From: an uncultured virus (IMG/VR IMGVR_UViG_3300033066_001594)
Lineage: Duplodnaviria > Heunggongvirae > Uroviricota > Caudoviricetes
Reading direction: 5' to 3' (one strand)
Virus record (IMG/VR): IMGVR_UViG_3300033066_001594
Length of the DNA stretch: 20,000 nucleotides
Under the pieces are notes generated by a model that saw only the letters and a list, made by a program, of their open reading frames with translations, had not been told where the DNA came from and did not search any database. Positions 3,405 through 20,000 of the stretch are shown here, piece by piece; positions within the stretch are counted from its first letter, which is position 1, and each line of letters begins with the position of its first letter. The position numbers were made by a program, and so were the translations under genes.

Positions 3405-3415
3405 TAAGAGCCACG

Positions 3416-3709: not shown

Positions 3710-3722
3710 TAGGATAAGTCAC

Positions 3723-4488: not shown

Positions 4489-6580
4489 GACGGCGGGCGT
4501 CGAGGGTCAGCAAATCTCCAACGCTCTGTGGGGCTCCAATTACCAGCCCGACTCCAACGGATTCCTGAAGGACCCGCTCCTGCTGTCACTGGGCACGGGA
4601 CTGGGGATTGCCGGCGGTTCGGCACTGGCCAAGTACCTCGGTCCGAAGAAAGATGTTCCGACGCGTCAGCAGCTCAGCCTGCTCAAGCAGCGTCAACAGG
4701 CCTTCAGCCAGGCCCTGCAGGGGTCCGGTGCCACGCCGCCGGCCAAGCTCGCAGCCGCTGTCATCGACAGGGCCTGTGAACTTGTCACCGAGAAGCGGGC
4801 GTTCTGGGAGTGGTATCTGCCCGGTGCCATGCTCGCAGGGACCGCCGCCTATGGGGCGAGCTACCCGCACTTCTACAAGAACAACGAAAGCTACATCCGG
4901 GCCAAGGCGATGCAGCGTGCCAAGAGCCGCATCCAGGCGGTCAAGCCGCCGGGCGTGCAGGTCGAGACGCTCAAGCCGGGTGAAACACCCGAACAGCTCA
5001 AGGCCTTGTCCACGTCTTCGGAAGATGTGGTGCCGATGCCGTCCGCCGACAAGCTCGCCGGCCTCCAGTACCTGGACGATCTGGACCTGTTCGCCGCCCT
5101 CTCGCATTCGCTGTACACCGCCGGTGCCCTGCAGCCGGACGACAAGCCGCTCGTCGATCTGCTCGTGAAGACAGCGACACAGCGATACGCACGGACCGAG
5201 AAAACGGCCAGCGTGAAGCTGGCGTTCTCGGCCGAAGAACTGCAGACGGTGCTGGACAACCCGAACGCCCAGCCGCAGCTTCTGTCCATGATCGACAAGC
5301 TGATGAAGCTCAAGCCCCAGGACTTTGCCGAATACGGCAGCACGCCGCAGGAGGTCGTCGCCTACATCAAAGACAAGATGTCGTACCCCTTCATGGGCAG
5401 CACGGTTGCGGACGCCCTCACGAAAAAGGTCGAGGCAACGCCTGAAATCGCTTCTGACATCGCGAACCTCAGATCGACAGCAGGCTTACCCGCGGCGTCT
5501 CAGGCTCCTGCCGCACAGGCACAGGCGGGACAACAGGGCCAGCAGGGACAACAAGGACAGGACGGACAGCAGGGCCAAGGTGGCTTGAAGTCCAAGGCCA
5601 TGGACTTGCTCATGGACCAGACACCGCAGGGTCTGCTCGGCATTCTGGGTGGTGCCGTGGGGATGGCCACAGACCATCCGATCCTCGGACTGCTCGCTAT
5701 GGTGATGGGTGCGTTTGGTGCACCGGCCGTTTCCTTCCTGGCCAAGCAGTACCCGAACGTCGGCATCCTGCAGAAGGTCAACCAGTTCATGCAGGACACC
5801 ACGCTTCGCAAGCTCGTGGACGGCTACCACGCCAAGACGCAGGAAGCGATCAAGGGCGACGCACCCCCGACTCCTCCCACGACTCCTCCCACGACTCCGC
5901 CCACGACTCCGCCTACAACTCCACCCGCAGCTACTCCGCCTACGACTCCTGGCGGAGCGACGCCGTCGGCACCTGCAACAACCACACCGACGACGCCAGC
6001 CACACCACAACCGTCGGCTGGTCTACCGTCAGCGGCTACACCGGCGACACAGACCACGGCAGCAGTGCCAGGTAGAGAGGTGAGACAGCCTGCTGAGGGG
6101 CCAACGCCCAATGTGAATCAACCTCCGACCACAGCAGCAACGCCAGGTCGAGAGGTGCGGCAGCCCGCTGAAGGGCCAACGCCCTCACTCTCTAGTCCTG
6201 GATCTGCGTCCCCGGATACGGGAAACCAGCAGCTACAGCCAGCAGGGGCTGCTCCTGCGGCCCCGGTGTCGATGCCAAAGCCACCGACGACCCCCAGTAA
6301 GGTTCCTGCACCGATGCCAGCGGCACCGCCGGCAGTTAAATCAGGCATACCGTCGCCGGCAGCGGTCCCGATGCCACCGAGCATGAAGAACATCATGTCG
6401 GGCATGCCCAAGATCGATGTTCCGGGCGGTGCTTCAGCGACAAGCCACGGCTCGTCGCTGGGTATGAAACAGATGACGGGCCAGGCCCCGGCGGCTTCGG
6501 CGACCACGTCGGTCCCGACGCCCAAGCTCAACCCGCTACCCCACGGTGTCACGGGCCTTGGGCCTAAAGTCACCGCTTAA
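4433..6580 (+). CDS. Large hypothetical protein with K-x-A motifs, hydrophobic segments and a long Pro/Thr/Ala-rich disordered C-terminus (putative virion protein)
   Basis: 715-aa ORF with SKTA, AKLA, EKRA, DKLA, VKTA, EKTA and VKLA motifs, a GLLGILGGAVG...LGLLAMVMGAFG hydrophobic hairpin, and PPTT and GQQ repeats. Confidence 0.75.
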   Translation: MQPKLSPLRTLQSPRFLSKTAGVEGQQISNALWGSNYQPDSNGFLKDPLLLSLGTGLGIAGGSALAKYLGPKKDVPTRQQLSLLKQRQQAFSQALQGSGATPPAKLAAAVIDRACELVTEKRAFWEWYLPGAMLAGTAAYGASYPHFYKNNESYIRAKAMQRAKSRIQAVKPPGVQVETLKPGETPEQLKALSTSSEDVVPMPSADKLAGLQYLDDLDLFAALSHSLYTAGALQPDDKPLVDLLVKTATQRYARTEKTASVKLAFSAEELQTVLDNPNAQPQLLSMIDKLMKLKPQDFAEYGSTPQEVVAYIKDKMSYPFMGSTVADALTKKVEATPEIASDIANLRSTAGLPAASQAPAAQAQAGQQGQQGQQGQDGQQGQGGLKSKAMDLLMDQTPQGLLGILGGAVGMATDHPILGLLAMVMGAFGAPAVSFLAKQYPNVGILQKVNQFMQDTTLRKLVDGYHAKTQEAIKGDAPPTPPTTPPTTPPTTPPTTPPAATPPTTPGGATPSAPATTTPTTPATPQPSAGLPSAATPATQTTAAVPGREVRQPAEGPTPNVNQPPTTAATPGREVRQPAEGPTPSLSSPGSASPDTGNQQLQPAGAAPAAPVSMPKPPTTPSKVPAPMPAAPPAVKSGIPSPAAVPMPPSMKNIMSGMPKIDVPGGASATSHGSSLGMKQMTGQAPAASATTSVPTPKLNPLPHGVTGLGPKVTA
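5528..5583 (+). repeat. Coding 9-bp tandem repeat (GQQ)n
   Basis: GQQGQQGQQGQDGQQGQGG in the 715-aa ORF. Confidence 0.75.
5864..5950 (+). repeat. Coding 12-bp tandem repeat (PPTT)n
   Basis: ccN-ccc-acg-act units encoding PPTPPTTPPTTPPTTPPTTPPAATPPTTP. Confidence 0.85.
6068..6184 (+). repeat. Duplicated 14-aa motif PGREVRQPAEGPTP (6068-6109 and 6143-6184)
   Basis: Identical peptide twice, with only synonymous differences between the two DNA copies. Confidence 0.85.
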
Positions 6581-6586
6581 TGGCCG

Positions 6587-6604
6587 CTTCCAGTAAGCTG
6601 GAAG
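6587..6604 (+). promoter_or_regulatory. Hairpin CTTCCAG-TAAG-CTGGAAG overlapping the ribosome-binding region of the RNAP gene
   Basis: Perfect 7-bp inverted repeat ending 4 nt before ATG 6609. No U-tract, so it is not a classic intrinsic terminator. Confidence 0.45.
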
Positions 6605-6608
6605 GACC

Positions 6609-9600
6609 ATGGCAAGTCAACCACTCAGCCCACAACACGATGCACCGGCTCCCATTGAGCCGGTGCATCGTGATTTCCTGGATGTACCGTCCACCCGTCA
6701 GGGCCTGTTTGACGGCGTGATCGGGTCGATTAAGACCAGTTACCCGGTGTCGAACAACCAGTTCGAGCTGCACATCGAGAATCCCAAGTACACGGCGACG
6801 CCCAAGTACAGCATCGCCGACCAGAAAAACGCGATCCTCAAGCAGCAGAGCCTGACCTGGCCGATCAAGGGCGACTGGGTGCTGAAGGACAAGCAGGGTC
6901 AGGAGATCCACCGCGTCAAGAACAAGCTGATCGCCCGCGTGCCGTACATGACCGATCGCGGTACGTTCATCTACAACGGCACCGAGTGGACGGTCTCGAA
7001 CCAGCAGCGGCTGCGTTCAGGTGCCTACGCCCGCCAGAAGGAGAACGGTGACCTGGAGAACCACGTCAACCTGATCCCCGGCACGGGCAAGAGCTTCCGC
7101 CTGCACATGGAGCCTGACACTGGTGTGTTCAAGATCCAGGTCGAGCAGAGCCACATGCCCCTCTTCCCGGTGCTGCGTGCACTGGGTGCCTCTCCGAAGG
7201 ACTTTATCGATCACTGGGGTCACGACCTGTACATGGCCAACGCCCGGCAGGGAGATCCGCAGACCGTTGCCAAGGTGTTCGGCAAGCTGGCCCGCACCGC
7301 ACAGCTCGAACAGTTCAAGCATGACCCGGCCCTTGGCATCCGCGAGATCTTCGCCAAGGCGGGACTCGACCCGGAGGTGAGTCAGCGGAACCTGGGGGCC
7401 CCGCACGCCAGCGTGGACGCACCCATGCTGCTGGCGGCCACGCGGAAGCTCCTGCACATTCACCAGGGCAAGGCCGAGCCGGACGACCGCGACTCGCAGG
7501 CCAATCAGACGGTGCACGGCCCGGAGGACCTGTTCGCCGAACGCATCACCAAGGACTCGGGACGCATCGCCAAGCAGCTCCTGTGGAAGGCGACGCACAA
7601 CCGCAACCTCAACCACATCTCCTCGTCAGCCTTGACGCCGCAGCTCAACTCGGTGCTGCTGACCAGCGGCCTGGGTTCCCCGCTGTCAGAAATCAACCCC
7701 GTCGAGATCCTCGACCAGCTGGCTCGCGTGTCGCGTCTTGGTGACGGCGGCATGGGTTCGAGCGACGCCATTCCCATGGAGGCTCGCAGCGTCCAGCCCT
7801 CGCAGATGGGCTACATCGATGTCGTGGCCGGCCCCGAGTCAGGAAACATCGGTGTCGACACCCGTGCGGCGTGGGGTACGCGGAAGGGCAAGGACAACCT
7901 CCTCTACCAGCAGATGATCAACGTCCGGACGGGCAAGCCCGAGTACCGCTCGGCACGCGACACCGTTCACAGTGTGCTGGCGTTCCCCGGTGAGATGGAG
8001 AAGAACTCCTCGTCGGTCCGAGCCATGGTCGACGGCCGCATGACGTACGTGCCGAAAGAAAAAGTGGACTACGTGGTGCCCAGTGGCAACCACATGTTCG
8101 CGTTGACGACCAACCTCATTCCCGGCCTCTCCGGCATCAAGGGCGGCCGTGCTCTGATGGGTGCCAAGATGGTCAAGCAGGCTCTGCCCATGGTCAACGC
8201 CGAGGCCCCGCTCGTGCAGTCGGCTCACCCGGATGGCGGGAGTTTCCACGAACACCTGGGACGGTTGATGGGGACGGTGCATGCCGCGACCGACGGAATT
8301 GTCCAACGTGTTGGACGAGATTCGATTCACGTCCGCCACGCCGACGGCTCGCTCAAAGAGCACGAGTTGTATGACAACTTTCCGTTCAATGCCAAGAGCG
8401 TCAGCGGCAACAGCCTGGTCGAAGTAAGGAAGAAAAATAAAAAGGTTTGGACGGGGGCGATCCAGGACTACGTATCTCAGGAAGGAGATTTTGTTCGGTC
8501 CATTCATCCCGTAACACACCAGTCCGCGTGGATGCCAATCACAGGGTTCATAAAACACAGGAACGATAAAAAGCTGTACCGCATTACAACTGCATCCGGT
8601 CGTCACGTGGTTGTAACCGAAGACCACAGCTTAGTTACTGTTGGAGACGCCGGTCAGCTCGTGTCCGTATTTCCTAAGGATTGTGTGGTGGGTGAGACTA
8701 GACTCCCCGTCGCCACGATTCCTAATACGACAACCCTGTTTGATTGGTCCTACGATTTAGGCGTGGTTGCTGGCTTGTACCTCTCTGAAGGTCACATTCC
8801 AAAAGCTCAACCGAACCTGATTAATATCGCGGTCGCTCCTGATGTTAGAGCTGCTGAAGTAAAGGAGTTGCTTATTCGGGTTAGTACGAGCGGACGTAAG
8901 CCATTCCGGAATGGGGGCAGCGTTTGTCTGACTGACGTAAACCTGTCTAAATGGTTACAGCAACACTTCGGACGAATGTCTCATTTCAAGTTTGTGTCAG
9001 ACGCGGTTCTTAATGCCCCAGAGCCGTTCCGTCGCGGACTCGTCAACGGGTACATGGGCGGGGATGGTACTCTAGCCATCGACAGCAATAACGCCGTCCA
9101 GATCAACGCTTACAGTATGTCGAGGAATCTGCGTGACGGCCTGGTACGTGTCCTAGCGTCATTGTCTGTGTTCTGCTCTGTAGACGACAGTCGATCGTCC
9201 CCAGAAGGTCCGGTTTACGGCTTTCGAGTCATCTCATCTCACCTGACGAAGCTGGACCGATGGTTCTGTTACGAAGACCGACACGTCAAGTTCCAGGCCA
9301 CTACCAGCAAGACGTACCGATCATCCCCCTACTCTGCGATTCCTGTGCCAAAATCTCGTAAGGCTCGTAAAGCCCTCTACACGGACAACAAGCCAAACAT
9401 GTTTGTGTACAAAACAGCGAGTCTAGGTTTTGTTGCGAAGGAGCGTGTAGCTAAGTTCAAAGGCCCATACGGACGCTGGGGCCGATCCGACGTTATGTGG
9501 GACATGATCACAGACATTTCGCCCGTACCGCACGAGGATTATGTTTACGACTTTTCTGTGGGCGGATCTGAGAACTTTGCTGTAAATCACGGTCTAGTTG

Positions 9601-12600
9601 TTCACAACACGTTTGTGCACAGCACGCCGGTCGTCAAGCCGGGCGATCCGGTCACCGCCGGTCAGCTCCTGGCCAAGAGCAACTACACCAACGACAAAGG
9701 CGAGCTGGCACTGGGCCTGAATTTCAAGACCGGGTACATGCCGTACCAGTCGGAGCACGGCTCTGTGGCCGCTGACACCCACGTGCTGTGGTACGACAGC
9801 GACAATCAGCCACATTTCGGACCTGTTGAGACTGTAAGTGACGCTGTTAAAGCGTTAGCGTTAGATCCTAGATCACTTAAGACGTCTCCCCTCGGGATCA
9901 CTAAGCTGTGGGCTCACCCGCCAACTGGCGGTATGTCTGAAGTGATTACATCCTCCGGTCGACGTGTAGTCGCAACTGATAACCACAGCTTCGTAACTTT
10001 GAACGATGACGGGCAACTTGTGGAGTCTAAAACTACGGGACTCACACCCAAGGTGTCTTGGATTCCTCGTCTCGGGCGGGTTGACCTGCCCGTAACAACT
10101 ACAACGGCAGAGCTTGGATCCAAGACGTTGCCTGCGATTGTGCTTCCGCTGTCCGCCGATTTAGGATTTGTTGTTGGCATGTATCTCGCTGAAGGATACG
10201 TGCGGCTACACAAAAACGTCGACTTCGCGGTCACTGATCCTTTACTCCGTGTCCATCTTGTGGGGGCACTTCAACGGTTGTTACCGCACGCGACGATCTC
10301 AGACAAGCCTCAGAATCCTTACATTCGTGTGTACTGTTCTCGCCTTGCTCAGTGGCTGGAACAGACCTGTGGAAAGCTCGCACAGCGAAAGTTTGTGCCT
10401 GGTGCTGCTTTTGGGGCTCCTTTGGTGTTCCGTCTAAGCCTCCTCGCAGGTTTCTGGGCAGGCGATGGTCGTGTCTCGAGCAAACAGTCAGTACCGACAG
10501 ACACTGACACCCTTATCACGTCAAAGAGACTCCGTGACGGTCTGGGATTACTTTTCGCCAGCGTGGGTATTAGCACCACGCACGGCCAGTACACCGATGC
10601 TGCTTACTCGGAAGGGGTTGTGTACCGCCTTGGCATTAGCTGCCGTGACTTGAATAAATTTCCTACATTCCCGCACTCAGTTAAAGCGGCTCGTCTTGAT
10701 GAGATCGTGCGTAGTTACAAGGGCTGTGGGTCTGCAGATCACGTTCCTATCCCGCGTAATGCTGCAAAGGCGTACCAACAATGTGGACGGGGGCAAGGTC
10801 GTCGGGTCTACAACCGCCTCCAGGCTCAGGCCAAGGCGAGCACTGCTAATAGAGACGACGTATTGCGGTACGTGCCGGCTGATTCTCAAGACCCAGCACT
10901 CCAAGCTCTTCGACGGTTGGCTATCTCACCTATCGAGTGGGATCGCATTGAGTCTATTCAACCTAAGACCTACGTGGGGCTGGTTTATGACTTCGACATG
11001 GCTCCACTTCGTACGTTTGTTTGTGTTGATACGCTGGTAGTCCACAACTCCAACTACGAGGATGCCATCGTCATCAGCGAGGCGGCTGCCAAGCGTCTGA
11101 CCAGCGAGCACATGAAGCAGCAGACGTACGACCCGTCTGCCGAGGGCGTGAAGGTCGACCGCAATCACTACCTCTCGGTCTTCCCGACCAAGTTCAACCG
11201 GGATCAGCTCAACAGCATCGGGGACGACGGTGTGGTCAAGCCCGGCACGCGGGTGACCCACGGCGATCCGCTGGTCCTGTCGGTCAAGACCAAGAAGCCG
11301 CAGCAGGGCATGAGTGCGTTGCACCGTCACAACAAGAGCTATACCAACGACGACGCCCTCACCTGGACGTTCAAGCACCCGGGCGTCGTGACCGACGTGC
11401 ACCACGGTAACGACGGCATCAAGGTGACGGTCAAGAGCTATCACTCGATGCAGGTCGGCGACAAGCTTTCCGGTGCTTTCGGCGACAAGGGCGTGTGCGG
11501 GGCCATCGTCCCGGACGACCAGATGCCACGCGGCAGCGACGGCCAGCCTCTCGAGGTCCTGCTCAACCCGCTCGGGGCGATTACCCGCACCAACCCCAGC
11601 CAGTTGATCGAGGCGGCACTGGGCAAGGTCGCGGCCAAGACCGGCAAGAAATACGTCCTGCCGTCGTTCGGCACCGATCTGCTCAAGTACGCCATGAGCG
11701 AGCTGGAGAAGAACGGCCTCAGCGACACCGACAAGGTGTACGACCCGCACACCCGGCGGACCAACGAGGTCTTCACCGGCAACCGGTTTCTCTACAAGCT
11801 GTACCACGAGGCAGAATCCAAGGAGACGGGCCGATCGGACGCCGGCAGCTACACGAGTGAAGGTCAGCCGGCCAAGACCAAGGAAGAGTCGGCCAAGCGA
11901 CTGGGCCTGCTCGACATGAACGCCCTGATCTCTCACGGCGTGCCTGCCGTCATCCGCGACAGCAAGCTGGTCCGCGGCCAGCGGAATGACGCCTACTGGG
12001 CAGCCTTCCGGTCCGGCCAGACGCCGCCGGCACCCGAGACGCCGTTCATCTACAACAAGTGGCTTGCCCACCTGCAGGGGTCAGGCGTTCACATTCGTGA
12101 CACGGCCCACGGCCTGCAGCTCATGGCCATGCGTGACAAGGACGTCGACCAGCTCTCACGGGGTGCTCTGACCCACGGCGACTCGGTGAGTCTCAAGGAC
12201 AACAAGCCCATTCCTGGTGGCTTGTTCGACGTCGGACTGACGGGTGGTCACCACGGGCAGAATTGGACACACCTGGACCTGAGCGAGCCGATTCCCAACC
12301 CGGTGATGGAAGAGCCGGTCCGTCGGCTGCTCGGCCTGACACAGAAGGAGTTCGAACAGCGGCTCGCGTCCCCGGAAGGGACCCACTGGTTCAAGGACAA
12401 GCTCGCGTCACTGGACGTCGATAAGGAGATCACCAGCCAGCGTCGACTGATCGAATCAGGCCGCAGGTCCAAGCGTGACGAGGCGGTCAAGAAGCTGGGC
12501 TACCTGACCACGCTCAAGCAGACAGGTATCAAGCCCCAGGAACTGCTGATGAGCAAGTTCCCGGTCATTCCGCCAGCGATGCGTCCTGTGACCAAGGTCG

Positions 12601-14882
12601 GCAACATGCAGCTGACCTCAGACGCCAACTTCCTGTACCAGGAGCTGCACAAGGCGTCCGAGAACCTGAGGGAGGCCAGAGAAGCGGGTCTCGAGTCCGG
12701 GACCGAACGTCTGGATCTCTACAACGCGGCCAAGGCCGTCAGCGGCCTGGGCGATCCGCTCTCCCGCAAGCTGCAGGAGAAGGGCGTCGCCGGCCTGCTC
12801 ACGCACGTATTCGGCAAGGGCAGTCCCAAGGGCGGCCAGTTCCAGCGTCGGCTTATCGGCGGGACGCTCGACACGGTCGGACGTGCGGCCATCACGCCGA
12901 ACCCGACCATGGACATGGACCACGTGGGTATTCCTGAATCCAAAGCCTGGCAGGTGTACCGGCCGTTCATCATGCGTCGTCTGGCCCGGCAGTACAACGT
13001 AGGGGCAGAGGCCAAGGTCCCGGTCACTGAGCTGGCCCAGTGGGTTGCCAGAAAAGACCCAAGGGCCAAGCAAGCGTTGCTGGACGAGATGCAGGAGCGT
13101 CCGGTCATGATCAACCGGGCACCGGTGTGGCACCGCTACGGCTACATGGCGGCCTGGCCCAAGCTCGTGAAGGGTGAGACGCTGCACATCAGCCCGATCA
13201 CGACCACTGGCTTTGGTGCCGACTTTAATGGTGATAGTTTTATTAGTTGTAGCGTTCCTTGTGTCATAAATGGCGAATTTCACGTAGGTTCCATCGAATC
13301 ACTGGTGGCTAAGATAATACCTGGATTTAGTGAGCACAATGCCTTAAAGTGGTGGGGTAAGCAGACAACTATTTTCCCCGTTACCTCTGGAGGTCTTCTC
13401 GTGCTTGGACTTGATAAGGACAAAAAGGCCAGTTTTGTCGAAGCTTCCCATATCAGCATTCACACGTCACACGGGCCAGACTGTTTCCGTGTGACTTCTG
13501 ATTGCGGCCTCGACGCAACTTTTACAGCACATCACAATTTCTTCGTCCTGGATGAACGCTGTGAGCTAGTACCAGTCAAGACGGAGCAAGTGCACCCAGA
13601 CGGACTGATTCCTTACGTGCGTAAGTTCCAGTTGCCCCAGGATGGTCGATCGCCGCTGGACGCACCAAATCCATTCGAGCTGACGTTTGAGACTGGTTTC
13701 TGGTTTGGCCACTACTTGGGCGACGGTTCGATTACAGGTCGTCGTGACACAATTAGCCAGGCCGCGTGTGACGCCGGTCTTCTTGGCTACGTGGAGGCAA
13801 TCGGATCCCAAATCTTTAAAGGCATCACGCCGTGGCGTGAAGGGAACAATTGTTCAACGCGTTGGACAAACACGGCGTGGGTTCGATTCTTTGAAAGCTG
13901 GGGGTGTCTTGCCGCGTCAAAACAGATACCCGGGTGGATGGTTCAATCGAACGACGAGTTTCGTCGTGGGCTCCTCGCTGGGTTCATTGCAGCAGAAGGT
14001 AGTGTTACTAAACAGGCGGTACGCATCGAGATCGTAAATCGATCAATGCTGCTTCAGTTCAAGTTCATCGCAGAGTCGTTTGGGTGCATCTGTCGAATGG
14101 GTAAAGGTAAGGAGGCTACAGATCGTAAACAGGCCACGTACCTACTTCGTATTAGTGATCTAAAATCGGCCAACATTAAGTGGCCAAGCTTTCCACGTGT
14201 TCAGCGATTTGCGACTCTGACTGTGGGAAGACGTAATTGGGATCTCGTCCCGTTACCAGAATCCGTCACTGAAGTCTGCGAGGCTCAAGGTAAGAAGATG
14301 GCAGGCTCTGCGGGAGCCGCTTACCGGAAGTCATTAAACAGGAGTCGCCACGCCCCAGAGTACAAACAGTTTACGATCGCAGCAAAAGAACAGGTATGTA
14401 CACGAGAGTTCGCAAAGTGGATCATCGACGGTTACGGATTGAGAACGCTGGACGATGTGACTATTTGTAATTGGATCAGCTGGGTGGATAACCCAACGGT
14501 CTATTGGGACAAGATTCGTACTGTCGAGAAAGTGGACCGTCCACCTGTGACGTATGACTTCAGCGTCCCTGGACACGAGGCCTTTGCAATTGACGGCACG
14601 TGTCTGACTCACAACACGATGAACTACTCGGTGCCCGTGTCCGAGGACGCCGTCCGCGAGGCCATCGACAAGATGATGCCGAGCAGGAACCTGTTCTCGA
14701 CCCGTGACTTTGGCGTGCACATGATGCCCCGGCAGGAATACCTGCACGGCCTGTTCGCGGCAACCCGCCGCATCCGCGAAGACCGGCCGACTCGTACCTT
14801 TGCCAGCAAGCAGGATGTGCTGCGGTCCCTGCGACGGGGTGAAATCGGCGTCGACGATCCTGTGGAGATAGTCGGACGGTAA
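6609..14882 (+). CDS. rpoBC: DNA-directed RNA polymerase beta subunit fused to the N-terminal half of beta', with three inteins (2757-aa precursor, about 1464 aa spliced)
   Basis: Beta motifs: VPYMTDRGTFIYNGTE, GPESGNIG, RALMGAKMVKQA, NYEDAIVIS, GDKLSGAFGDKG, LLNPLG, KLYH. Beta' motifs in the same frame: KPIPGGLFD, PVIPPAMRP, SDANFLY, NRAPVWHR, GADFNGD/TMNYSVP. Confidence 0.95.
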   Translation: MASQPLSPQHDAPAPIEPVHRDFLDVPSTRQGLFDGVIGSIKTSYPVSNNQFELHIENPKYTATPKYSIADQKNAILKQQSLTWPIKGDWVLKDKQGQEIHRVKNKLIARVPYMTDRGTFIYNGTEWTVSNQQRLRSGAYARQKENGDLENHVNLIPGTGKSFRLHMEPDTGVFKIQVEQSHMPLFPVLRALGASPKDFIDHWGHDLYMANARQGDPQTVAKVFGKLARTAQLEQFKHDPALGIREIFAKAGLDPEVSQRNLGAPHASVDAPMLLAATRKLLHIHQGKAEPDDRDSQANQTVHGPEDLFAERITKDSGRIAKQLLWKATHNRNLNHISSSALTPQLNSVLLTSGLGSPLSEINPVEILDQLARVSRLGDGGMGSSDAIPMEARSVQPSQMGYIDVVAGPESGNIGVDTRAAWGTRKGKDNLLYQQMINVRTGKPEYRSARDTVHSVLAFPGEMEKNSSSVRAMVDGRMTYVPKEKVDYVVPSGNHMFALTTNLIPGLSGIKGGRALMGAKMVKQALPMVNAEAPLVQSAHPDGGSFHEHLGRLMGTVHAATDGIVQRVGRDSIHVRHADGSLKEHELYDNFPFNAKSVSGNSLVEVRKKNKKVWTGAIQDYVSQEGDFVRSIHPVTHQSAWMPITGFIKHRNDKKLYRITTASGRHVVVTEDHSLVTVGDAGQLVSVFPKDCVVGETRLPVATIPNTTTLFDWSYDLGVVAGLYLSEGHIPKAQPNLINIAVAPDVRAAEVKELLIRVSTSGRKPFRNGGSVCLTDVNLSKWLQQHFGRMSHFKFVSDAVLNAPEPFRRGLVNGYMGGDGTLAIDSNNAVQINAYSMSRNLRDGLVRVLASLSVFCSVDDSRSSPEGPVYGFRVISSHLTKLDRWFCYEDRHVKFQATTSKTYRSSPYSAIPVPKSRKARKALYTDNKPNMFVYKTASLGFVAKERVAKFKGPYGRWGRSDVMWDMITDISPVPHEDYVYDFSVGGSENFAVNHGLVVHNTFVHSTPVVKPGDPVTAGQLLAKSNYTNDKGELALGLNFKTGYMPYQSEHGSVAADTHVLWYDSDNQPHFGPVETVSDAVKALALDPRSLKTSPLGITKLWAHPPTGGMSEVITSSGRRVVATDNHSFVTLNDDGQLVESKTTGLTPKVSWIPRLGRVDLPVTTTTAELGSKTLPAIVLPLSADLGFVVGMYLAEGYVRLHKNVDFAVTDPLLRVHLVGALQRLLPHATISDKPQNPYIRVYCSRLAQWLEQTCGKLAQRKFVPGAAFGAPLVFRLSLLAGFWAGDGRVSSKQSVPTDTDTLITSKRLRDGLGLLFASVGISTTHGQYTDAAYSEGVVYRLGISCRDLNKFPTFPHSVKAARLDEIVRSYKGCGSADHVPIPRNAAKAYQQCGRGQGRRVYNRLQAQAKASTANRDDVLRYVPADSQDPALQALRRLAISPIEWDRIESIQPKTYVGLVYDFDMAPLRTFVCVDTLVVHNSNYEDAIVISEAAAKRLTSEHMKQQTYDPSAEGVKVDRNHYLSVFPTKFNRDQLNSIGDDGVVKPGTRVTHGDPLVLSVKTKKPQQGMSALHRHNKSYTNDDALTWTFKHPGVVTDVHHGNDGIKVTVKSYHSMQVGDKLSGAFGDKGVCGAIVPDDQMPRGSDGQPLEVLLNPLGAITRTNPSQLIEAALGKVAAKTGKKYVLPSFGTDLLKYAMSELEKNGLSDTDKVYDPHTRRTNEVFTGNRFLYKLYHEAESKETGRSDAGSYTSEGQPAKTKEESAKRLGLLDMNALISHGVPAVIRDSKLVRGQRNDAYWAAFRSGQTPPAPETPFIYNKWLAHLQGSGVHIRDTAHGLQLMAMRDKDVDQLSRGALTHGDSVSLKDNKPIPGGLFDVGLTGGHHGQNWTHLDLSEPIPNPVMEEPVRRLLGLTQKEFEQRLASPEGTHWFKDKLASLDVDKEITSQRRLIESGRRSKRDEAVKKLGYLTTLKQTGIKPQELLMSKFPVIPPAMRPVTKVGNMQLTSDANFLYQELHKASENLREAREAGLESGTERLDLYNAAKAVSGLGDPLSRKLQEKGVAGLLTHVFGKGSPKGGQFQRRLIGGTLDTVGRAAITPNPTMDMDHVGIPESKAWQVYRPFIMRRLARQYNVGAEAKVPVTELAQWVARKDPRAKQALLDEMQERPVMINRAPVWHRYGYMAAWPKLVKGETLHISPITTTGFGADFNGDSFISCSVPCVINGEFHVGSIESLVAKIIPGFSEHNALKWWGKQTTIFPVTSGGLLVLGLDKDKKASFVEASHISIHTSHGPDCFRVTSDCGLDATFTAHHNFFVLDERCELVPVKTEQVHPDGLIPYVRKFQLPQDGRSPLDAPNPFELTFETGFWFGHYLGDGSITGRRDTISQAACDAGLLGYVEAIGSQIFKGITPWREGNNCSTRWTNTAWVRFFESWGCLAASKQIPGWMVQSNDEFRRGLLAGFIAAEGSVTKQAVRIEIVNRSMLLQFKFIAESFGCICRMGKGKEATDRKQATYLLRISDLKSANIKWPSFPRVQRFATLTVGRRNWDLVPLPESVTEVCEAQGKKMAGSAGAAYRKSLNRSRHAPEYKQFTIAAKEQVCTREFAKWIIDGYGLRTLDDVTICNWISWVDNPTVYWDKIRTVEKVDRPPVTYDFSVPGHEAFAIDGTCLTHNTMNYSVPVSEDAVREAIDKMMPSRNLFSTRDFGVHMMPRQEYLHGLFAATRRIREDRPTRTFASKQDVLRSLRRGEIGVDDPVEIVGR
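8397..9608 (+). mobile_element. Intein 1 with LAGLIDADG homing endonuclease (404 aa) in RNAP beta
   Basis: Starts SVSGNSLV; block B VVVTEDH; LAGLIDADG-like VAGLYLSEG and VNGYMGGDG; ends VVHN followed by Thr. Removal gives FPFNAK-TFVHSTP, matching E. coli RSNQN-TCINQMP. AT-richer codons. Confidence 0.92.
9762..11048 (+). mobile_element. Intein 2 with LAGLIDADG homing endonuclease (429 aa) in RNAP beta
   Basis: Starts SVAADTHV; block B VATDNH; VGMYLAEG and LAGFWAGDG; ends VVHN followed by Ser. Removal gives MPYQSEHG-SNYEDAI, matching MPWNGYNFEDSI. Confidence 0.92.
13236..14615 (+). mobile_element. Intein 3 with LAGLIDADG homing endonuclease (460 aa), directly after the catalytic DxxGD motif of beta'
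   Basis: Starts SFISCSVP; block B FTAHH; FGHYLGDG and LAGFIAAEG; ends CLTHN followed by Thr. Removal gives GADFNGD-TMNYSVP, matching NADFDGD-QMAVHVP. Confidence 0.92.
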
Positions 14883-14891
14883 GATGGGCGT

Positions 14892-15299
14892 ATGGACTTT
14901 GCACAACGTGTTTTGAGTGGACAGATCAAGACGGCCGGCTTTGCCAGCCTCGCCGGTAAAGCCATCGGTACCGTTGCCAAGCCGATTCTCAAGAGCTTTG
15001 GCCGGGGTGCGGCTACGGCGGCACCCGCCGCAGACCTCGGGGCGTCCAAAGGGTTTTCGCTGCTCAACACGCTGCGATCCCCGAAGGTGAACCTGGCGGC
15101 AGGCGGTGCGGCTGTCGGACTCGGGGCGATCAACAACGCTGTCAGTACCGGTGACCAGGTCCAGGCTTATGACGCCAAATCGATGGCCGGTAACTACGAC
15201 AACACGGTGCGGCCGTTGCTGGGTGCCAGCATGCTGGTCGGAGCCCCTATCGCCGCTTATCTGGCAACCCGCAAAAACGAAGTTGACGACGAACCCTGA
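14892..15299 (+). CDS. Small hypothetical membrane-type protein with N-terminal leader ending in KTA
   Basis: 135 aa. MDFAQRVLSGQIKTA leader; hydrophobic segments LAAGGAAVGLGAI and LLGASMLVGAPIAAYLA. Confidence 0.75.
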   Translation: MDFAQRVLSGQIKTAGFASLAGKAIGTVAKPILKSFGRGAATAAPAADLGASKGFSLLNTLRSPKVNLAAGGAAVGLGAINNAVSTGDQVQAYDAKSMAGNYDNTVRPLLGASMLVGAPIAAYLATRKNEVDDEP

Positions 15300-15340
15300 A
15301 CCGGGTCTGTACACTGCTCTAGGTCTTAACAAGGTTACGC

Positions 15341-16150
15341 ATGTCCCGATTTTCAACACCGACCCGCTTCAACCCCTCGCTTCTCCGAGCCGCACAGGAG
15401 GGGATTGCCGCGACCAAGACGGCGTTCGTCGCGTTCGGCCCCAACGGCGAAGTGGCCGCCCAGCAGCAACAGCCAGGTGCCCAGCAAGCCGGCGGTGCTC
15501 CCCAGCCCGGCATGCCGCCGCAGGGCGACCCGTCCGGTGGCGGTCAAGCCGCTGCACCGCCGCAAGCTCCGCCTCAACAACCCCAGCAGCCCCCGCAACA
15601 GCCGACCGCTGGTGGCATGGGTGATCCGGGACAAGCCGACCAGATGCGTGCGGTTCTTCGCGAGGAGCTGGAACGCAACGAGCAGAAGCCCAAGAAGCTC
15701 ACCATTCAGGACCGGATGACCCAGCTCGAAGGCCTGGTCCTTCGCGTGATGGAGCACAACGGCCTGATCCCGACCGACCCCAACCTCGTCAACCAGCAGC
15801 CATCATCCACGGGCGTCGATGCCCCGGCCAACACCGGTGCGACTCCGCCGGCAGGTGCCCCGCCCGCCTCGGGTGGTGCTCCGGCGGGACCGGCCGCGGG
15901 TGCCATGAAGACGGCAGCCATGCGTGACCCGATCCTGCAATCCCTGCTCTGGTCGGTTCGAGAACAGATGGAACTTGGAATGCAGGAGATGGAGCGGACG
16001 GCTGCCGAGCTGTCTGACGCCCCGGTCGTCGGCAGCGTCGACTACAACCCCATCCCGACACAGCTGGTGGCAAACCAGGACATCTTCGATCACCCCGAAG
16101 GTCACTCGTTCGCGTCCATGATCAATTCCATTTACAACGACGACCAATGA
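15341..16150 (+). CDS. Gln/Pro/Gly-rich hypothetical protein with a central helical segment and two KTA motifs
   Basis: 269 aa with ATKTA and MKTAA motifs. Its stop overlaps the next start (ATGA at 16147-16150). Confidence 0.75.
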   Translation: MSRFSTPTRFNPSLLRAAQEGIAATKTAFVAFGPNGEVAAQQQQPGAQQAGGAPQPGMPPQGDPSGGGQAAAPPQAPPQQPQQPPQQPTAGGMGDPGQADQMRAVLREELERNEQKPKKLTIQDRMTQLEGLVLRVMEHNGLIPTDPNLVNQQPSSTGVDAPANTGATPPAGAPPASGGAPAGPAAGAMKTAAMRDPILQSLLWSVREQMELGMQEMERTAAELSDAPVVGSVDYNPIPTQLVANQDIFDHPEGHSFASMINSIYNDDQ

Positions 16151-16650
16151 TCCTGCTGATCGGGCAATTCCAAGGGATGGCACTCAAGCCGATCCGCCTG
16201 GAAGGTGTTACCTCTGTCCTCATCAAACGGGCCATTGGCGATCAGCCGACGGGGCCGATCGCCGCCATCCTTCAGCTCACCCCCAACTCGTACTGGATCA
16301 GCTCACGGGGCGATGATGACTTCCAGTCGACGATCGATGACCTGGGGCTGACCCGGCTTGCCGTGCTCTTGGAAGCTGTAGTGCGATACCCGTCGTTCCT
16401 GTCCGTGCAGGTGATGCAGGGCCTCCAGGCCACGACCCATCTCGTGGACGTGGACCACGTGGCCGTGCTGGACGAGTTCGACCAGGCGATCTTCCTGGCC
16501 CGTATGGTCACAAGCTCTTCCGCGTGGCTGGGCCGGCTGAAGGACAAGGACTTTGACAAGCAACTGGATGCCCTGGGCCTGGGTCAGAGTACACTGAACG
16601 TGGACAGCCTTAATCAAGATGATTACCTCACCGGGACAATTGCTGGTTAA
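16147..16650 (+). CDS. Hypothetical protein made of two tandem ~70-aa repeats, coupled to the beta'-C gene
   Basis: YWISSRGDDDFQSTIDDLGL versus AWLGRLKDKDFDKQLDALGL. ATGA coupling upstream and a 32-nt overlap with the downstream gene. Confidence 0.75.
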   Translation: MILLIGQFQGMALKPIRLEGVTSVLIKRAIGDQPTGPIAAILQLTPNSYWISSRGDDDFQSTIDDLGLTRLAVLLEAVVRYPSFLSVQVMQGLQATTHLVDVDHVAVLDEFDQAIFLARMVTSSSAWLGRLKDKDFDKQLDALGLGQSTLNVDSLNQDDYLTGTIAG

Positions 16651-19615
16651 CGACGCCCTCCCTGAGGACCTGCGTCGACCCCAATGGCGTCTGGACAAGA
16701 AGGGCGTGACCGAGCTGTTCACACAGATCGCTAACCGCTATCCGGATCGCTACCGCGACATTGCCCAGCAGCTCATGAGCAGCGGCCACTTCTCGGCCCA
16801 GTCGTCCGGCACGACGCTCCGGCTCCGCGACCTGATGTTGCCACCCGAAGTCGAGCAGCGGATGCAGTCACTTCGCTCCCAGGTCCAGGCCCTCGCCGAG
16901 CAGGACATCCCACGCGAACAGAAAGAGAAGCTCATCGTCGATCTCGTCTTCAAGGGCAGCAACGGCCTGGAGAAGACGCTCATGGATCACGGGCTGACAC
17001 ACGACAACAACCTCGCCGCCCAGGTGTCCAGCGGTTCACGCGGAAACCCGACACAATTCAAGCAGCTTGTGGCCGGCGACATGCTCGTGGCCGATCACCG
17101 CAACCGCGTGATCCCCGTGCCCGTGCTCCACGGCTACGCCAACGGCGTCGAGCCGGCCGAGTACTTCGCCGCCTCCTACGGTGCACGGCGTGGCACCATC
17201 TCGACCAAGTTCGCTACCCGCAATGCCGGCTTCCTCGGCAAGCAGCTGGCGATGATCGCACACCGACTGGTCGTCAGTGAGAAGGACTGCGGGGCCACGA
17301 CCGGCATGCCCGTCGAGGGAAGTGACAAGGACAACATCGGCTCTGTGCTGGCCCAGGACACGGGCGGTCACAAGGCCGGCACGATCATTACGGCGGACAT
17401 GCTGGGCGATTTTCAGGACAAGAAGATCCTGGTCCGTTCGCCGACCACCTGCCAATCCTCTCGCGGCGTGTGTGCCAAGTGTGTCGGCGTCCGTGAGAAG
17501 GGTCACCTACCTGAAGTCGGCGAGAACGTCGGCATGGCTGCGGCACAGGCCGTGAGCGAGCCGCTGGCCCAGTCGAGTTTGTGCCTAGCAAAAGGAACGC
17601 TGGTCCGCATGGCAGATTCGACGGAACAAGCCATCGAAAAGATTAAACCAGGAGATTGGGTCCTCGGGGCGGATATACAAGGACGAGCATTTCCAGTTAA
17701 GGTCCTACGACGGTTCGACAACGGGCTTAGAGCCTGCCATCAGACAACGTTTAGAATCGGAACCCAGCACGCCGCTGAAGCTACGCAGCTTACGTCTACG
17801 TTAGATCACAAAATTCTCGCAACGACGTGGTACAGCAATTGTCAGAGCGAGCAATACAACAACACTGCACGGATTCTTCCGGTCGGGTTCAAAAACAGCA
17901 GACTGTCGGCTGTTTACCCGTCTTCGATTCGGTTTAACTGCACACTTAAAGAGCCACGGGCGTTACTTCTGGGTTTGTTGTTGGGCGATGGTTGCTATAC
18001 CAAGTCGGTGGGTCGTCCTTATTTCTCTTGTGACGATCCACAACTCATCAGCGAACTGGCAGCGTATCTACAGGCTATGAACCTCCAGCTGGTGTTTCAC
18101 AAGGGCAGTAAATGTTATTGGCGAGTCTCACAGATCAAGGACACCATTAACCAGGACCCAAAGACTGGACGGACAACAGCCGGTAGTCGGAACCCGGCGA
18201 AGATCTTGCTTCAGCACTACGGGATCGACGAGAAGTACGCCCATGAAAAAGAGATCCCATCTCAGCTACTTAAGGCTGACAACGCGACCGTTGCGGATTT
18301 GATCGCCGGTCTCTGGATAACGGATGGCTCGCTGTATTTGACTGAAAAAGGACGTCGCTTACACCTGGGGTTCACGTCTACATCCCCGGTACTGGTTCGT
18401 CAGTTGAAGTGGTTATTGCAATGGCGTTTCGGTATCTACGGTGCTGCGGTTCACTTTAGCCCGATGTCACAGAATAAGACGCGAAAGCACGACGTGTACA
18501 GCTTCGCCATTGCCAGGCAGGATGCAGTTAGACGCTTCGTTGAGAAAATTCCGCTACGTGGAATTAAAGCTGAGAAGGCTAGGATGTGGGCTGATCGACT
18601 CGTTAATGAAAACGCCCTTCAGCACCAGCGAGGATCACGAACCAGTCAGACGTTCGTTGGCAACCTTCCAACGTTTGATATTGAAGTTGATCACCCTGAT
18701 CACCTGTTTGTACTGGCTAACGGGTTGATCGTCAGTAACTCAGAAAAGCACTCGGGTGGTGCGGTCACCAAGCGGGCGGCCGAGACCAGCGGGTTCGACT
18801 ACATCAACCGTCTGATCCAGACGCCTAAACAGTTTTCAGGTTCGGCCGTTGTCGCCAGCAGGGCGGGTCGGATCACCGATATCGTCGACGCTCCGCAGGG
18901 TGGCAAGTTCGTTTACGTCGACAGCGAAAAGCACTACGTGCCGCCGTCCGAGACCGTCTCGGTCAAGCCGGGCGACAAGCTGGATGCCGGCGACTTGTTG
19001 TCGGAAGGCGTACCCAACCCGGCCGATGTCGTGGCCCACAAGGGGATCGGTGAAGGCCGGCGGAGTTTTACGCAGACGTTGTACAAGGCCCTGGCCGACA
19101 GCGGGATCAAGGCCCATCGCCGAAACGTGGAGCTGATCTCCAGGGGCCTGATCAACCACGTGAAGTGGAATGGCGAAGACCCGGACCATCATGTCCTGCC
19201 GGACGATATCGTGCCCTATGACAGCATCTCCAAGTCATACCGCCCCCGGGCGGACGCCAGGACGCTGGAGCCGGCACGGGCCGTCGACATGCACCTCGAA
19301 CACCCAGCCCTTCATTACTCGATCGGGACCAAGATTACGCCTCGCGTGGCGAACGAGCTGAACGAGTTTGGCGTGAACCAGGTGGTGGCCCACCCCGAGC
19401 CGCCGCCGTTCGATCCACACATGCTCCACGGCCGCGAAGTGGGGCTCAAGGACCCGAACTGGGTGACACGCATGGGTTCGTCGTATTTAGAGAAGGGGTT
19501 CCTCGAAGGCGTGCACCGTGGTCGTACGGCACAGACGTCTGACACCAGCTTCTACCCGAGCCTTGCCAAGACCAAGGGATTCGGTTCTGACCTAGACAAG
19601 AGCGGAACGTACTAG
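16619..19615 (+). CDS. rpoC: DNA-directed RNA polymerase beta' subunit, C-terminal half, with one intein (998-aa precursor, about 612 aa spliced)
   Basis: TSPGQLLVNDALP (TTxGR..N..LP), SGSRGN, bridge helix YGARRGTISTKFATRNAGFLGKQL, VSEKDCG, Zn site RSPTTC...GVCAKCVG, trigger loop AQAVSEPLAQSSL/SEKHSGG, GIKAHRRNVELI. Confidence 0.95.
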   Translation: MITSPGQLLVNDALPEDLRRPQWRLDKKGVTELFTQIANRYPDRYRDIAQQLMSSGHFSAQSSGTTLRLRDLMLPPEVEQRMQSLRSQVQALAEQDIPREQKEKLIVDLVFKGSNGLEKTLMDHGLTHDNNLAAQVSSGSRGNPTQFKQLVAGDMLVADHRNRVIPVPVLHGYANGVEPAEYFAASYGARRGTISTKFATRNAGFLGKQLAMIAHRLVVSEKDCGATTGMPVEGSDKDNIGSVLAQDTGGHKAGTIITADMLGDFQDKKILVRSPTTCQSSRGVCAKCVGVREKGHLPEVGENVGMAAAQAVSEPLAQSSLCLAKGTLVRMADSTEQAIEKIKPGDWVLGADIQGRAFPVKVLRRFDNGLRACHQTTFRIGTQHAAEATQLTSTLDHKILATTWYSNCQSEQYNNTARILPVGFKNSRLSAVYPSSIRFNCTLKEPRALLLGLLLGDGCYTKSVGRPYFSCDDPQLISELAAYLQAMNLQLVFHKGSKCYWRVSQIKDTINQDPKTGRTTAGSRNPAKILLQHYGIDEKYAHEKEIPSQLLKADNATVADLIAGLWITDGSLYLTEKGRRLHLGFTSTSPVLVRQLKWLLQWRFGIYGAAVHFSPMSQNKTRKHDVYSFAIARQDAVRRFVEKIPLRGIKAEKARMWADRLVNENALQHQRGSRTSQTFVGNLPTFDIEVDHPDHLFVLANGLIVSNSEKHSGGAVTKRAAETSGFDYINRLIQTPKQFSGSAVVASRAGRITDIVDAPQGGKFVYVDSEKHYVPPSETVSVKPGDKLDAGDLLSEGVPNPADVVAHKGIGEGRRSFTQTLYKALADSGIKAHRRNVELISRGLINHVKWNGEDPDHHVLPDDIVPYDSISKSYRPRADARTLEPARAVDMHLEHPALHYSIGTKITPRVANELNEFGVNQVVAHPEPPPFDPHMLHGREVGLKDPNWVTRMGSSYLEKGFLEGVHRGRTAQTSDTSFYPSLAKTKGFGSDLDKSGTY
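17582..18739 (+). mobile_element. Intein 4 with LAGLIDADG homing endonuclease (386 aa) in the trigger loop
   Basis: Starts CLAKGTLVRMAD; block B STLDH; LGLLLGDG and IAGLWITDG; ends LIVSN followed by Ser. Removal gives EPLAQSSL-SEKHSGG, matching EPGTQLTM-RTFHIGG. Confidence 0.92.
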
Positions 19616-19669: not shown

Positions 19670-20000
19670 GTGCCGACGACTGACACCGATTTTGAAAAAG
19701 CATTCTCCGAGATCGCCTTCTCCTCACTCAAGGACAAGGCCCCAGGCTTGTTCGACTACCTGGTCGGATTCCAGGTACTGGACGTCAACGAGGAGCAGAA
19801 CCACGCTATTGGTGTGTTCGGCTGCCACGTCGGCGATGAGTGGGTTTACTTGCCTGTGTTCTTCCACAACGGCGAACTCAAGGGCAGCGAGCTCATGTAC
19901 GTCAAGGGCCAGGACATGTTTGTGCCGCTGCAGGAGAACTGGGTCAACTACTTCCTGCACCGCAAGCCCTACGCCATGGGCGAGACCGCAGACGTGACCC
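19670..20000 (+). CDS. Hypothetical protein, 5' part (runs off the window; absent from the supplied ORF track)
   Basis: GTG 19670 with GGGAG 7 nt upstream. Open frame MPTTDTDFEKAFSEIAFSSLKDKAPGLFDYLVGFQVLD...WVYLPVFFHNGELKG... to the window end, with strong GC3 bias. Confidence 0.8.
   Translation, partial: MPTTDTDFEKAFSEIAFSSLKDKAPGLFDYLVGFQVLDVNEEQNHAIGVFGCHVGDEWVYLPVFFHNGELKGSELMYVKGQDMFVPLQENWVNYFLHRKPYAMGETADVT

Follow-up and report, generated by a model that had tools for sequence, protein, structure and literature searches.

The 20,000-nucleotide stretch analysed here (the window; IMG/VR record IMGVR_UViG_3300033066_001594, an uncultured virus of the Caudoviricetes) encodes an RNA polymerase (RNAP) in two chains. 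The large chain joins a complete beta subunit to the N-terminal half of beta', and the C-terminal half of beta' is encoded as a separate small chain three genes downstream. The two genes carry four inteins, one of which directly follows an altered catalytic Mg loop. The features are as follows, all on the plus (+) strand.

6609..14882 (+): large RNAP chain, complete beta fused to the beta' N-terminal half, from profiles and collinearity with gp206 of Salmonella phage Arash
8397..9608 (+): intein 1, in beta; 404 aa, Ser1, His-Asn end, Thr+1, LAGLIDADG
9762..11048 (+): intein 2, in beta; 429 aa, Ser1, His-Asn end, Ser+1
11457..11492 (+): beta double-psi barrel motif with both catalytic lysines, GDKLSGAFGDKG, placed by alignment
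12087..12116 (+): beta/beta' fusion join, 10 residues forming two short strands and a turn, no spacer, from an alignment of 39 family members
12243..12266 (+): site of the deleted beta' N-terminal zinc finger (about 32 residues with four Cys in bacteria)
13221..13235 (+): catalytic Mg loop DFNGD, middle Asp replaced by Asn (AAT, 13227-13229)
13236..14615 (+): intein 3, directly 3' of the Mg loop; 460 aa, Ser1, Thr-His-Asn end, Thr+1, LAGLIDADG
14616..14882 (+): C-terminal 88 residues of the large chain, up to a point just ahead of the beta' TTxGR helix
14892..16650 (+): three intervening open reading frames (ORFs) of 135, 269 and 167 aa, two of them with K-x-A motifs
16619..19615 (+): small RNAP chain, beta' C-terminal half; rpoC profile E 1e-54
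17147..17248 (+): bridge helix, by alignment with bacterial beta'
17288..17482 (+): second beta' zinc site, retained (Cys 224, 278, 285 and 288)
17582..18739 (+): intein 4, within the trigger loop; 386 aa, Cys1, Ser-Asn end, Ser+1

The large chain is a 2757-aa precursor in a frame without an internal stop and measures 1464 aa once its inteins are removed; the small chain is a 998-aa precursor, or 612 aa without its intein, and the spliced core of both chains together comes to ~2,076 aa. NCBIfam profiles for both rpoB (E 5e-69) and rpoC (E 5e-43) match the large chain, the beta-family profiles up to residue ~1829 and the beta'-family profiles from ~1914, and position 549 of the rpoC profile aligns to residue 2 of the small chain. 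An earlier note on this DNA, made from the letters alone, had read beta as running through a short linker (~12085-12120) into beta'; the starts of the large-chain motifs (PETPF 12033, LQGSG 12072, LMAMRDKD 12120, KPIPGGLF 12204) and the profiles agree, and every coordinate it gave was correct on checking. Its statement that the chain ends about 89 aa after the catalytic motif describes the spliced protein, in which 88 extein residues follow, and not the precursor, which has 548 until the 460-aa intein is removed. It also rightly had beta' resume three genes later: the small chain starts at 16619 after three small ORFs, for which profile searches gave no family matches, and the split point lies just upstream of TTxGR, so that this motif sits on the small chain. 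Two things were overlooked, namely that the catalytic motif is DFNGD, not DFDGD, and that the beta' N-terminal zinc finger is deleted.

The C-terminus of beta and the N-terminus of beta' are neighbours in bacterial RNAP. In an AlphaFold2 model of the junction, the two strands of the join occupy model residues 346-350 and 355-359, with pLDDT (per-residue confidence) of 86 and 72 for the two blocks; the predicted template modelling score (pTM) of 0.46 limits the model to local folding, the two halves not being docked and the global geometry not readable.

The same layout is found in cultured phages. A 728-aa stretch over the join matches four of them full-length in one piece at 31-32%, namely Arash and the Vibrio phages D181, D148 and D69. 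In Arash, gp206 (1525 aa) is collinear with the large chain over residues 15-1460 (30.6%), and gp216 (606 aa) with the small chain (27%). Homologues of the two-chain form make up at least 150 protein clusters at 50% identity; among the matches listed, one chain spans the join in 150/150 clusters, and 63-107 residues follow the Mg loop in all 148 resolved homologues. Scans of viral contigs with single protein queries returned no relatives; an alignment-based query recovered them, and at least 590 IMG/VR stretches encode relatives. Eighty of these were kept, on contigs of up to 235 kb; the small chain is a separate downstream ORF in 72, and the remaining eight end within 5.5 kb.

Sequencing data carry the junction as well. 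Run X1, possibly the source sample, has contigs that extend over the join, the Asn codon and the stop, and a contig from run X6, a separate wastewater study, bridges the join (11991-12141, 151 bases) with 0 differences, at a low depth of 2.1. Pieces of X2 (labelled activated sludge), X4 (riverine) and X6 match the window with few or no differences. The assembly artefact considered in the earlier note is thus contradicted by cultured phages, listed clusters and contigs that share one junction. In eight IMG/VR loci (L010, L011, L018, L042, L045, L058, L062 and L076) frameshifts or inserts divide the large chain between two ORFs; these breaks could be split inteins, unrecognised introns or errors; Rfam showed no intron in the four of these loci tested and no match in the window. 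The interruption of beta in Vibrio phage D181 is a group I intron.

Pfam recognises both double-psi barrels (Rpb2_6, E 2.5e-41; Rpb1_2, E 1.5e-11), as in multisubunit-type two-barrel enzymes. Identity to bacteria is 30-32% over 1,361 kept columns, and the PDB neighbours listed (the best 60 of 178, and the top 50 in a second search) are all bacterial beta'. The bridge helix and flap are kept, as is the trigger-loop His, with the Arg replaced; removal of intein 4 restores EPLAQSSLSEKHSGG, including this His. After splicing, the enzyme has ~2,076 aa versus ~2,750 in Acinetobacter, relative to which beta lacks segments 229-349, 392-416, 943-1066 and 1149-1200, and beta' lacks 63-94 (the N-terminal zinc finger), 141-177 and 944-1121; most of these we take to be lineage-specific inserts. 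The zinc finger, kept in bacteria and in the other phage enzymes aligned, is deleted family-wide, with at most one Cys in the next 50 residues in 267/267 mapped homologues (2 unmapped). The exteins of the two chains together contain 5 Cys in 2,076 aa, four of which form the second zinc site and are the only Cys in the small-chain exteins. Judged by its sequence, the window's polymerase is a bacterial-type core in reduced form. Retention of the second zinc site varies within the family: its pattern occurs in 8 of 67 small chains, and several two-chain and one-chain clades are wholly Cys-free.

Two contigs of metagenome-assembled genomes (MAGs), L100 and L102, hold the whole enzyme in one ORF. 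A search with the corresponding region as query matched 174 proteins, of which 120 were listed (clusters at 90%). Among these, intein-free full-length proteins mostly measure 2,020-2,140 aa, at least 636 residues follow the Mg loop in 120/120, and the beta/beta' join is the same in 117, the other three being N-terminal fragments. Complete genomes with the one-chain form (175-209 kb) encode an Arash-type capsid protein and a sigma factor in 5/5 cases.

Trees were built on 1,367 columns with FastTree (61 rows) and with IQ-TREE under a mixture model and a short search (34 of those rows), and rooted on bacteria (13 and 9 rows); archaea, cyanobacteria, Helicobacter, Wolbachia and the mReC phages were not among the rows, and the only phiKZ-like entry, a long branch, combines two halves that possibly come from different enzymes. 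The family and the bacteria each received support of 100 in both trees. Two-chain forms (96/98) and one-chain forms (96/90) are sister groups, and the window groups with Arash and D181 in the former, on a branch of 0.46 versus 0.36-0.39 for its neighbours. The distinct viral lineage suggested in the earlier note is thereby borne out, and nesting within a cellular clade was not seen among the limited bacterial phyla sampled: on these alignments the family is placed outside the bacteria sampled, given few phyla, no archaeal root and a risk of long-branch artefacts.

The two-chain form is probably secondary, with fusion first and the split of beta' later, because the sisters are one seamless chain, parsimony favours a single split over a split followed by refusion, the one-chain join is scar-free and the one-chain trigger loop is more bacterial. 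The one-chain join shows no scar of a linker, its length equals that in bacteria whose loops are short, and it matches intact bacterial beta'; in the trigger loop, AMKAFHTGG is the commonest one-chain form and two proteins have TMRTFHTGG, versus QISSKHSGG in the two-chain form. At precisely the two-chain split site, one one-chain protein, P0250, carries 25 inserted residues that include two K-x-A motifs, and a protease might make the two-chain form there after translation; a K-x-A-like insertion also occurs in beta'-N of Arash gp206 and its D181 homologue. In a separate group of cultured 110-170 kb phages, RP13 (L126, a Ralstonia phage), IME392 (L127) and Ab1 (L128/L133), the zinc finger is kept and beta' is unfused to beta; beta' is also split nearby, so the split site is recurrent.

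The window lacks the aspartate triad DxDGD of the Mg loop. Contigs of X1 spell the same DFNGD letters, as does the end of an X2 contig. We surveyed this loop in 364 sequences (a profile-based count in which some loci duplicate proteins), five of which were unresolved. All 256 sequences that are intein-free at the Mg loop read DxDGD, with no Asn variant. With an intein there (n=103), 67 read DxDGD, 28 DxDGN, seven DxNGD and one NxDGD, so that Asn occurs in 36/103; after removal of duplicates, 243 intein-free loops read DxDGD and those with an intein comprise 64 DxDGD, 28 DxDGN, seven DxNGD and one NxDGD. DxNGD is always paired with an intein of the Ser1...His-Asn type; the partner of DxDGN is an intein with Cys1 and a terminal Asp. 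Each type forms one clade of the intein tree (DxNGD 0.89, DxDGN 0.98), whereas on the extein tree the seven DxNGD require seven changes and the 28 DxDGN require 26, scattered over one- and two-chain hosts. Because the Asn types follow the intein tree, not the polymerase tree, Asn moves together with the intein. The DxNGD inteins have diverged to 23-57% mutual identity, so Asn persisted though one transition would revert it, a persistence that points to selection. That Cys1 inteins require Asn at -1 was ruled out by 16 Cys1 inteins that follow DxDGD, and no other splice junctions could restore DFDGD for intein 3, since no other Asp flanks it.

All four inteins are of the LAGLIDADG type and have a GC content at third codon positions (GC3) of 0.51-0.55, versus 0.79-0.88 in the exteins. 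T is the last letter of each of the four codons before intein 3 (extein GC3 0.84, intein GC3 0.51). This run, which was noticed post hoc and is absent at the other three inteins, would be consistent with co-conversion. The model of intein 3 (pTM 0.81) has LAGLIDADG inteins as its best fold matches (7qss, 2cw7, 1dq3); its flanks are of low confidence, so no contact of the Asn can be read. Sequence and model together give intein 3 the features of class 1: Ser/Cys1, a block-B His, a terminal His-Asn, a +1 nucleophile and the Hint fold. With the class 1 LAGLIDADG inteins TliVMA (7qss) and PI-PfuI (1dq3) it shares the fold, Ser/Cys1, terminal Asn and Ser/Thr+1; unlike them it is tied to an Asn in place of a catalytic Asp, three residues upstream.

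As for the other inteins, intein 1 matches Pfam Intein_splicing (E 1e-17), its boundaries being set by alignment to Arash, and an intein occupies the site of intein 2 in five homologues, from which a 3-residue N-extein insertion directly before intein 2 (9747-9761) is absent. Elsewhere in the family, a clade of 23 Mg-loop inteins (P0002, P0008, P0011, P0026 and others) starts with Gln, Ala, Glu, Asp, Gly, Tyr or Leu, not Cys/Ser, and ends in Ser-Asn in 22 members and His-Asn in one; in a large group of Mg-loop inteins (homologues P0151-P0269) the end is Gln-Asp or Phe-Asp, and Ser1 and Cys1 interchange freely.

Asn-Gly sites deamidate readily. The mature enzyme with an encoded DFNGD is very probably active. 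There is about an even chance that the Asn is simply tolerated, at some cost in rate. Deamidation of the Asn to Asp at the Asn-Gly site seems less probable, though a real possibility, and we are more doubtful still of a pro-enzyme, in which the intein needs Asn at the catalytic Asp and the enzyme is switched on when that Asn becomes Asp, either through splicing or in the freed Asn-Gly loop just afterwards. In the DxDGN lineage, the extein Asn may replace the missing terminal Asn of the intein and end as Asp. Flanking extein residues are reported to influence splicing (PMC4031507), and PolD is reported to function with two of its three aspartates (PMC4996933).

The relatives' genomes and the homologues of window ORFs indicate a tailed phage, in line with the non-cellular context assumed in the earlier note. 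Three window ORFs beside the polymerase have homologues in a complete 200.9-kb phage genome, G004 (E <=3e-8), and a fourth matches at E 2e-4. One further gene lies downstream:

19670..19999 (+): first part of a conserved gene downstream of the small chain, homologous to the Arash virion protein gp218

This gene matches gp218 at E 2.8e-6 and its G004 homologue at 3e-40, and is matched in 60/82 loci. G004 encodes homologues of the Arash-type portal, capsid and protease proteins, a baseplate J protein, DNA polymerase A and, as a relative of Arash gp10, a sigma-70-like factor; a gp10-like sigma also occurs in 4/4 further complete genomes. The Sigma70_r2 profile missed the phage sigma in 4/4 metagenomic genomes, and Arash gp10 as query found it. 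Of the partners that the earlier note named, sigma is thus present in the relatives, and alpha and omega were not detected: by profile, alpha was found in 0/5 two-chain relatives and 0/5 complete one-chain genomes, and omega in 0/5 two-chain relatives, the only group searched for it, with controls detected. The five relatives carry one beta per genome, that is, a single polymerase. G004 also has a tubulin/FtsZ-like GTPase gene just upstream of the polymerase module (35957-37189; L105) and a tandem run of about nine paralogous 160-aa genes (5023-9064; L104).

The polymerase genes sit in the head module. For the G004 head module the figures per 1000 aa are 4.6 versus 0.9 K-x-A motifs and 3.7 versus 20 Cys; the neighbouring window ORFs have 17 K-x-A matches versus 3.4 in shuffles (maximum 10 in 1,000 shuffles), and Arash head proteins are likewise rich in the motif, which is a probable head-protease signal. 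Among proteins of purified Arash particles, gp206 gave the most spectra (3,516), gp216 was fifth (1,210) and gp10 had 467 (PMC10585845). On this analysis we lean towards an enzyme that is packed in the head and delivered with the DNA.

Other window ORFs resemble head cargo. Those at 501-2204, 3609-4127, 4433-6580 and 14892-16150 encode low-complexity Gly/Pro/Gln/Ala proteins with many K-x-A motifs (KTA 10 times versus 1.1 in shuffles), probably cargo cut by the prohead protease. At 2214-3404 lies a 396-aa 2H phosphoesterase-domain protein (Pfam 2_5_RNA_ligase2, E 1e-9) without Cys and with homologues in 20/82 loci; it matches a profile for Acb1, a protein directed against CBASS (cyclic oligonucleotide-based antiphage signalling system), at E 0.0035, below the cut-off, and is possibly a packaged counter-defence enzyme. 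The gene at 3401-3709, for a 102-aa DUF6527-like protein (phrog_15183, E 3e-8) with three Cys and a homologue in 0/82 loci, is likely a recent insertion in the head module.

The closest known polymerases are those of Arash (gp206 and gp216; OQ632216.1; PMC10585845) and Vibrio phages D181, D148 and D69, which have the same join, the same split, the zinc finger deletion, the retained second zinc site and the head-module location. Arash differs from the window in being ~31% identical, without inteins and with a canonical DYDGD. In the available text of the Arash paper gp206 is labelled 'beta' and gp216 'beta-prime', the fusion is not remarked on and activity is not assayed (PMC10585845). Both barrels, the flap, the clamp, the bridge helix, the trigger-loop His and the second zinc site are common to bacterial RpoB/RpoC and the window, which is ~25% shorter than the bacterial core, lacks the beta' zinc finger and part of the clamp, has a split beta', forms a separate branch and, as read from its relatives only, has no alpha or omega found. 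The fusion order is that of the RpoBC fusions of Helicobacter and Wolbachia, and the window's relatives have a sigma-70-type partner; the profiles of those fused subunits span 2,839-2,890 positions, and they presumably keep beta' whole. Cyanobacterial RpoC1/RpoC2, like the window, split beta' shortly after the catalytic barrel; the small chain of the window starts ~18 residues ahead of RpoC2 (profile position 7 aligns to residue 25), and beta is fused only in the window.

Among phage enzymes, those of phiKZ and AR9 are likewise phage-encoded, lack alpha and omega and split beta' after the barrel (PMC7598289), but are described as two enzymes of 4-5 chains with a split beta and no recognisable sigma (PMC7598289, PMC7824862). 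In the window, beta is whole and fused, and its relatives have a sigma and, in 5/5 genomes, one enzyme; similarity to the phiKZ/AR9 type is weak (tblastn E 1e-4 to 1e-14; phiR1-37 21% on kept columns). The mReC phages (PMC7481178) and the phages Carin-5, GN1, RHph_Y65 and Va2 have bacterial-like two-barrel enzymes on a deep branch in tailed phages. In the mReC description beta and beta' are separate, of ~900-1560 aa, with none near 610 or 2,100 among 61 phage rows of the supplement, and the capsid family is PF07068 (PMC7481178), to which Arash gp226 has no match; these differences from the window set the mReC phages apart by description, their sequences being absent from our trees. Carin-5, GN1, RHph_Y65 and Va2, all of them cultured, likewise have beta and beta' as separate proteins, and they keep the zinc finger.

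YonO, crAss-like gp66 and P23-45 gp64/gp96 hold both barrels on one polypeptide, as do the large chain and the one-chain sisters. Homology of YonO to cellular RNAP is reported as a few residues, with none to the trigger loop (PMC5467207), and the crAss-like enzymes too are described as sharing few residues with cellular enzymes, whereas the window's family aligns with bacterial RNAP over >1,300 columns, well beyond the barrel motifs; YonO and gp66 were compared by description only. The earlier note's idea of a bridge between multisubunit and single-chain two-barrel enzymes is therefore unsupported as regards YonO and crAss, the window having a reduced bacterial-type core with bacterial PDB neighbours; a bridge does lie inside the family, where sisters have the enzyme as one chain, from which the two-chain form most likely derives. 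In the literature searched (mostly open-access) we found no publication describing the fused-and-split layout, the one-chain form or the intein-linked Asn, nor activity data for any family member; a single paper there names Arash together with RNA polymerase. The fused-and-split family is apparently undescribed as such; phage-encoded multisubunit-type RNAPs are already known.

Taken together, we consider it likely that the window encodes the sole RNAP of a ~200-kb Arash-like tailed phage, a reduced bacterial-type two-chain core that arose from a one-chain ancestor and carries an intein-maintained Asn. In the ancestor of the family, beta would have become fused to beta' via a short turn and the beta' zinc finger would have disappeared; the sister phages would retain the resulting one-chain enzyme, and one branch would later have split beta' at a surface turn before TTxGR. 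The Mg loop would be translated as DFNGD because the intein lineage carries and maintains the Asn. Once the four inteins splice out, the two chains would fold together without alpha or omega, part of whose role the fusion may take over; the phage sigma-70-like factor, bound via the retained flap and clamp, would set promoter choice, and the assembled enzyme, probably brought in with the DNA, would transcribe phage genes.

Several observations weigh against parts of this account. The evidence for sigma, for a missing alpha and for phage hallmarks comes from relatives (~55% identity on kept columns) instead of the window's own genome, and a profile search that misses alpha leaves room for host alpha or a diverged helper. 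The sister relation of one-chain and two-chain forms gives no order by itself, and the trees, which lack an archaeal root, cyanobacteria, Helicobacter and Wolbachia, draw on samples from single-query searches. The polymerase exteins show no K-x-A excess (2 matches), and the Arash particle list comprises 116 proteins, including ribonucleotide reductases, and its authors allow for carry-over (PMC10585845). Tolerance of the Asn is not obvious, because the middle Asp of E. coli RNAP binds both Mg ions (PMC13198411) and YonO with a triple Asp-to-Asn change is inactive (PMC5467207).

A cellular polymerase with this layout, or an assembly artefact, is extremely improbable. Relatives do occur at 15 loci of GTDB representative genomes, but all are on MAG contigs of unrelated taxa and 13/14 of the genomes also have an ordinary rpoC, for which reasons they look like binned phage contigs; moreover, cultured phages and complete viral genomes carry the layout. 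It is also unlikely, though far less so, that the split form is ancestral and the window an intermediate in a stepwise fusion of modules (beta with beta'-N, then beta'-C), a reading close to the bridge of the earlier note. Such an origin would suit the sister-group relation of the two forms, the two-part beta' near the split site in RP13, IME392, Ab1 and phiKZ-like phages, and the argument that split phage subunits are ancient (PMC7824862). It needs two events instead of one, however, and has to contend with a one-chain join that shows no linker scar and resembles intact bacterial beta', with one-chain trigger loops nearer to bacteria, and with a beta' that is intact at the split site in bacteria and in five other phage enzymes aligned.

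About as improbable as an ancestral split is an Asn that is a neutral-to-harmful hitchhiker, arisen once and spread by homing co-conversion in an enzyme that is impaired or dispensable: the four T-ending codons before intein 3 would fit, but the remaining active-site residues are all kept, the branch is not long (0.46 versus 0.36-0.39), Asn is retained across inteins 23-30% identical, and two intein lineages are independently paired with Asn at different positions. More plausible than these, but still the minority view, is a non-virion polymerase made after infection for middle or late genes, with the host enzyme serving early ones. With a single polymerase in 5/5 genomes, late transcription must use the phage enzyme or the host enzyme; Arash has a second sigma, gp196, the window enzyme keeps a zinc site, and the carry-over allowed for above could account for the particle data. 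Set against this, gp206 ranks above the capsid protein in the particle spectra (PMC10585845) and the genes lie among K-x-A-rich, Cys-poor head genes; virion and non-virion roles are also not mutually exclusive.

The family represents a very large phage lineage, with at least 150 two-chain clusters (50% identity) and at least 120 one-chain clusters (90%). Its polymerase can still be recognised as bacterial and yet appears to function with no alpha, no omega and no beta' zinc finger. Comparing its one-chain and two-chain versions offers a test of the roles of the assembly subunits and the zinc finger and of the origin of RNAP fusions and splits, and such tests are practical because a cultured member, Arash, exists. 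A 2,050-residue single-gene polymerase with its own sigma is a candidate orthogonal transcription tool. The intein-linked Asn challenges the 'universally conserved' triad, in that the enzyme either works with two Asp and an Asn or has its catalytic residue made post-translationally. If the pro-enzyme reading were true, a mobile element would be rewriting a catalytic residue that is conserved universally, and the same family would include a bacterial-type RNAP of ~2,050 residues that is made in one piece, depends on sigma and does without alpha.

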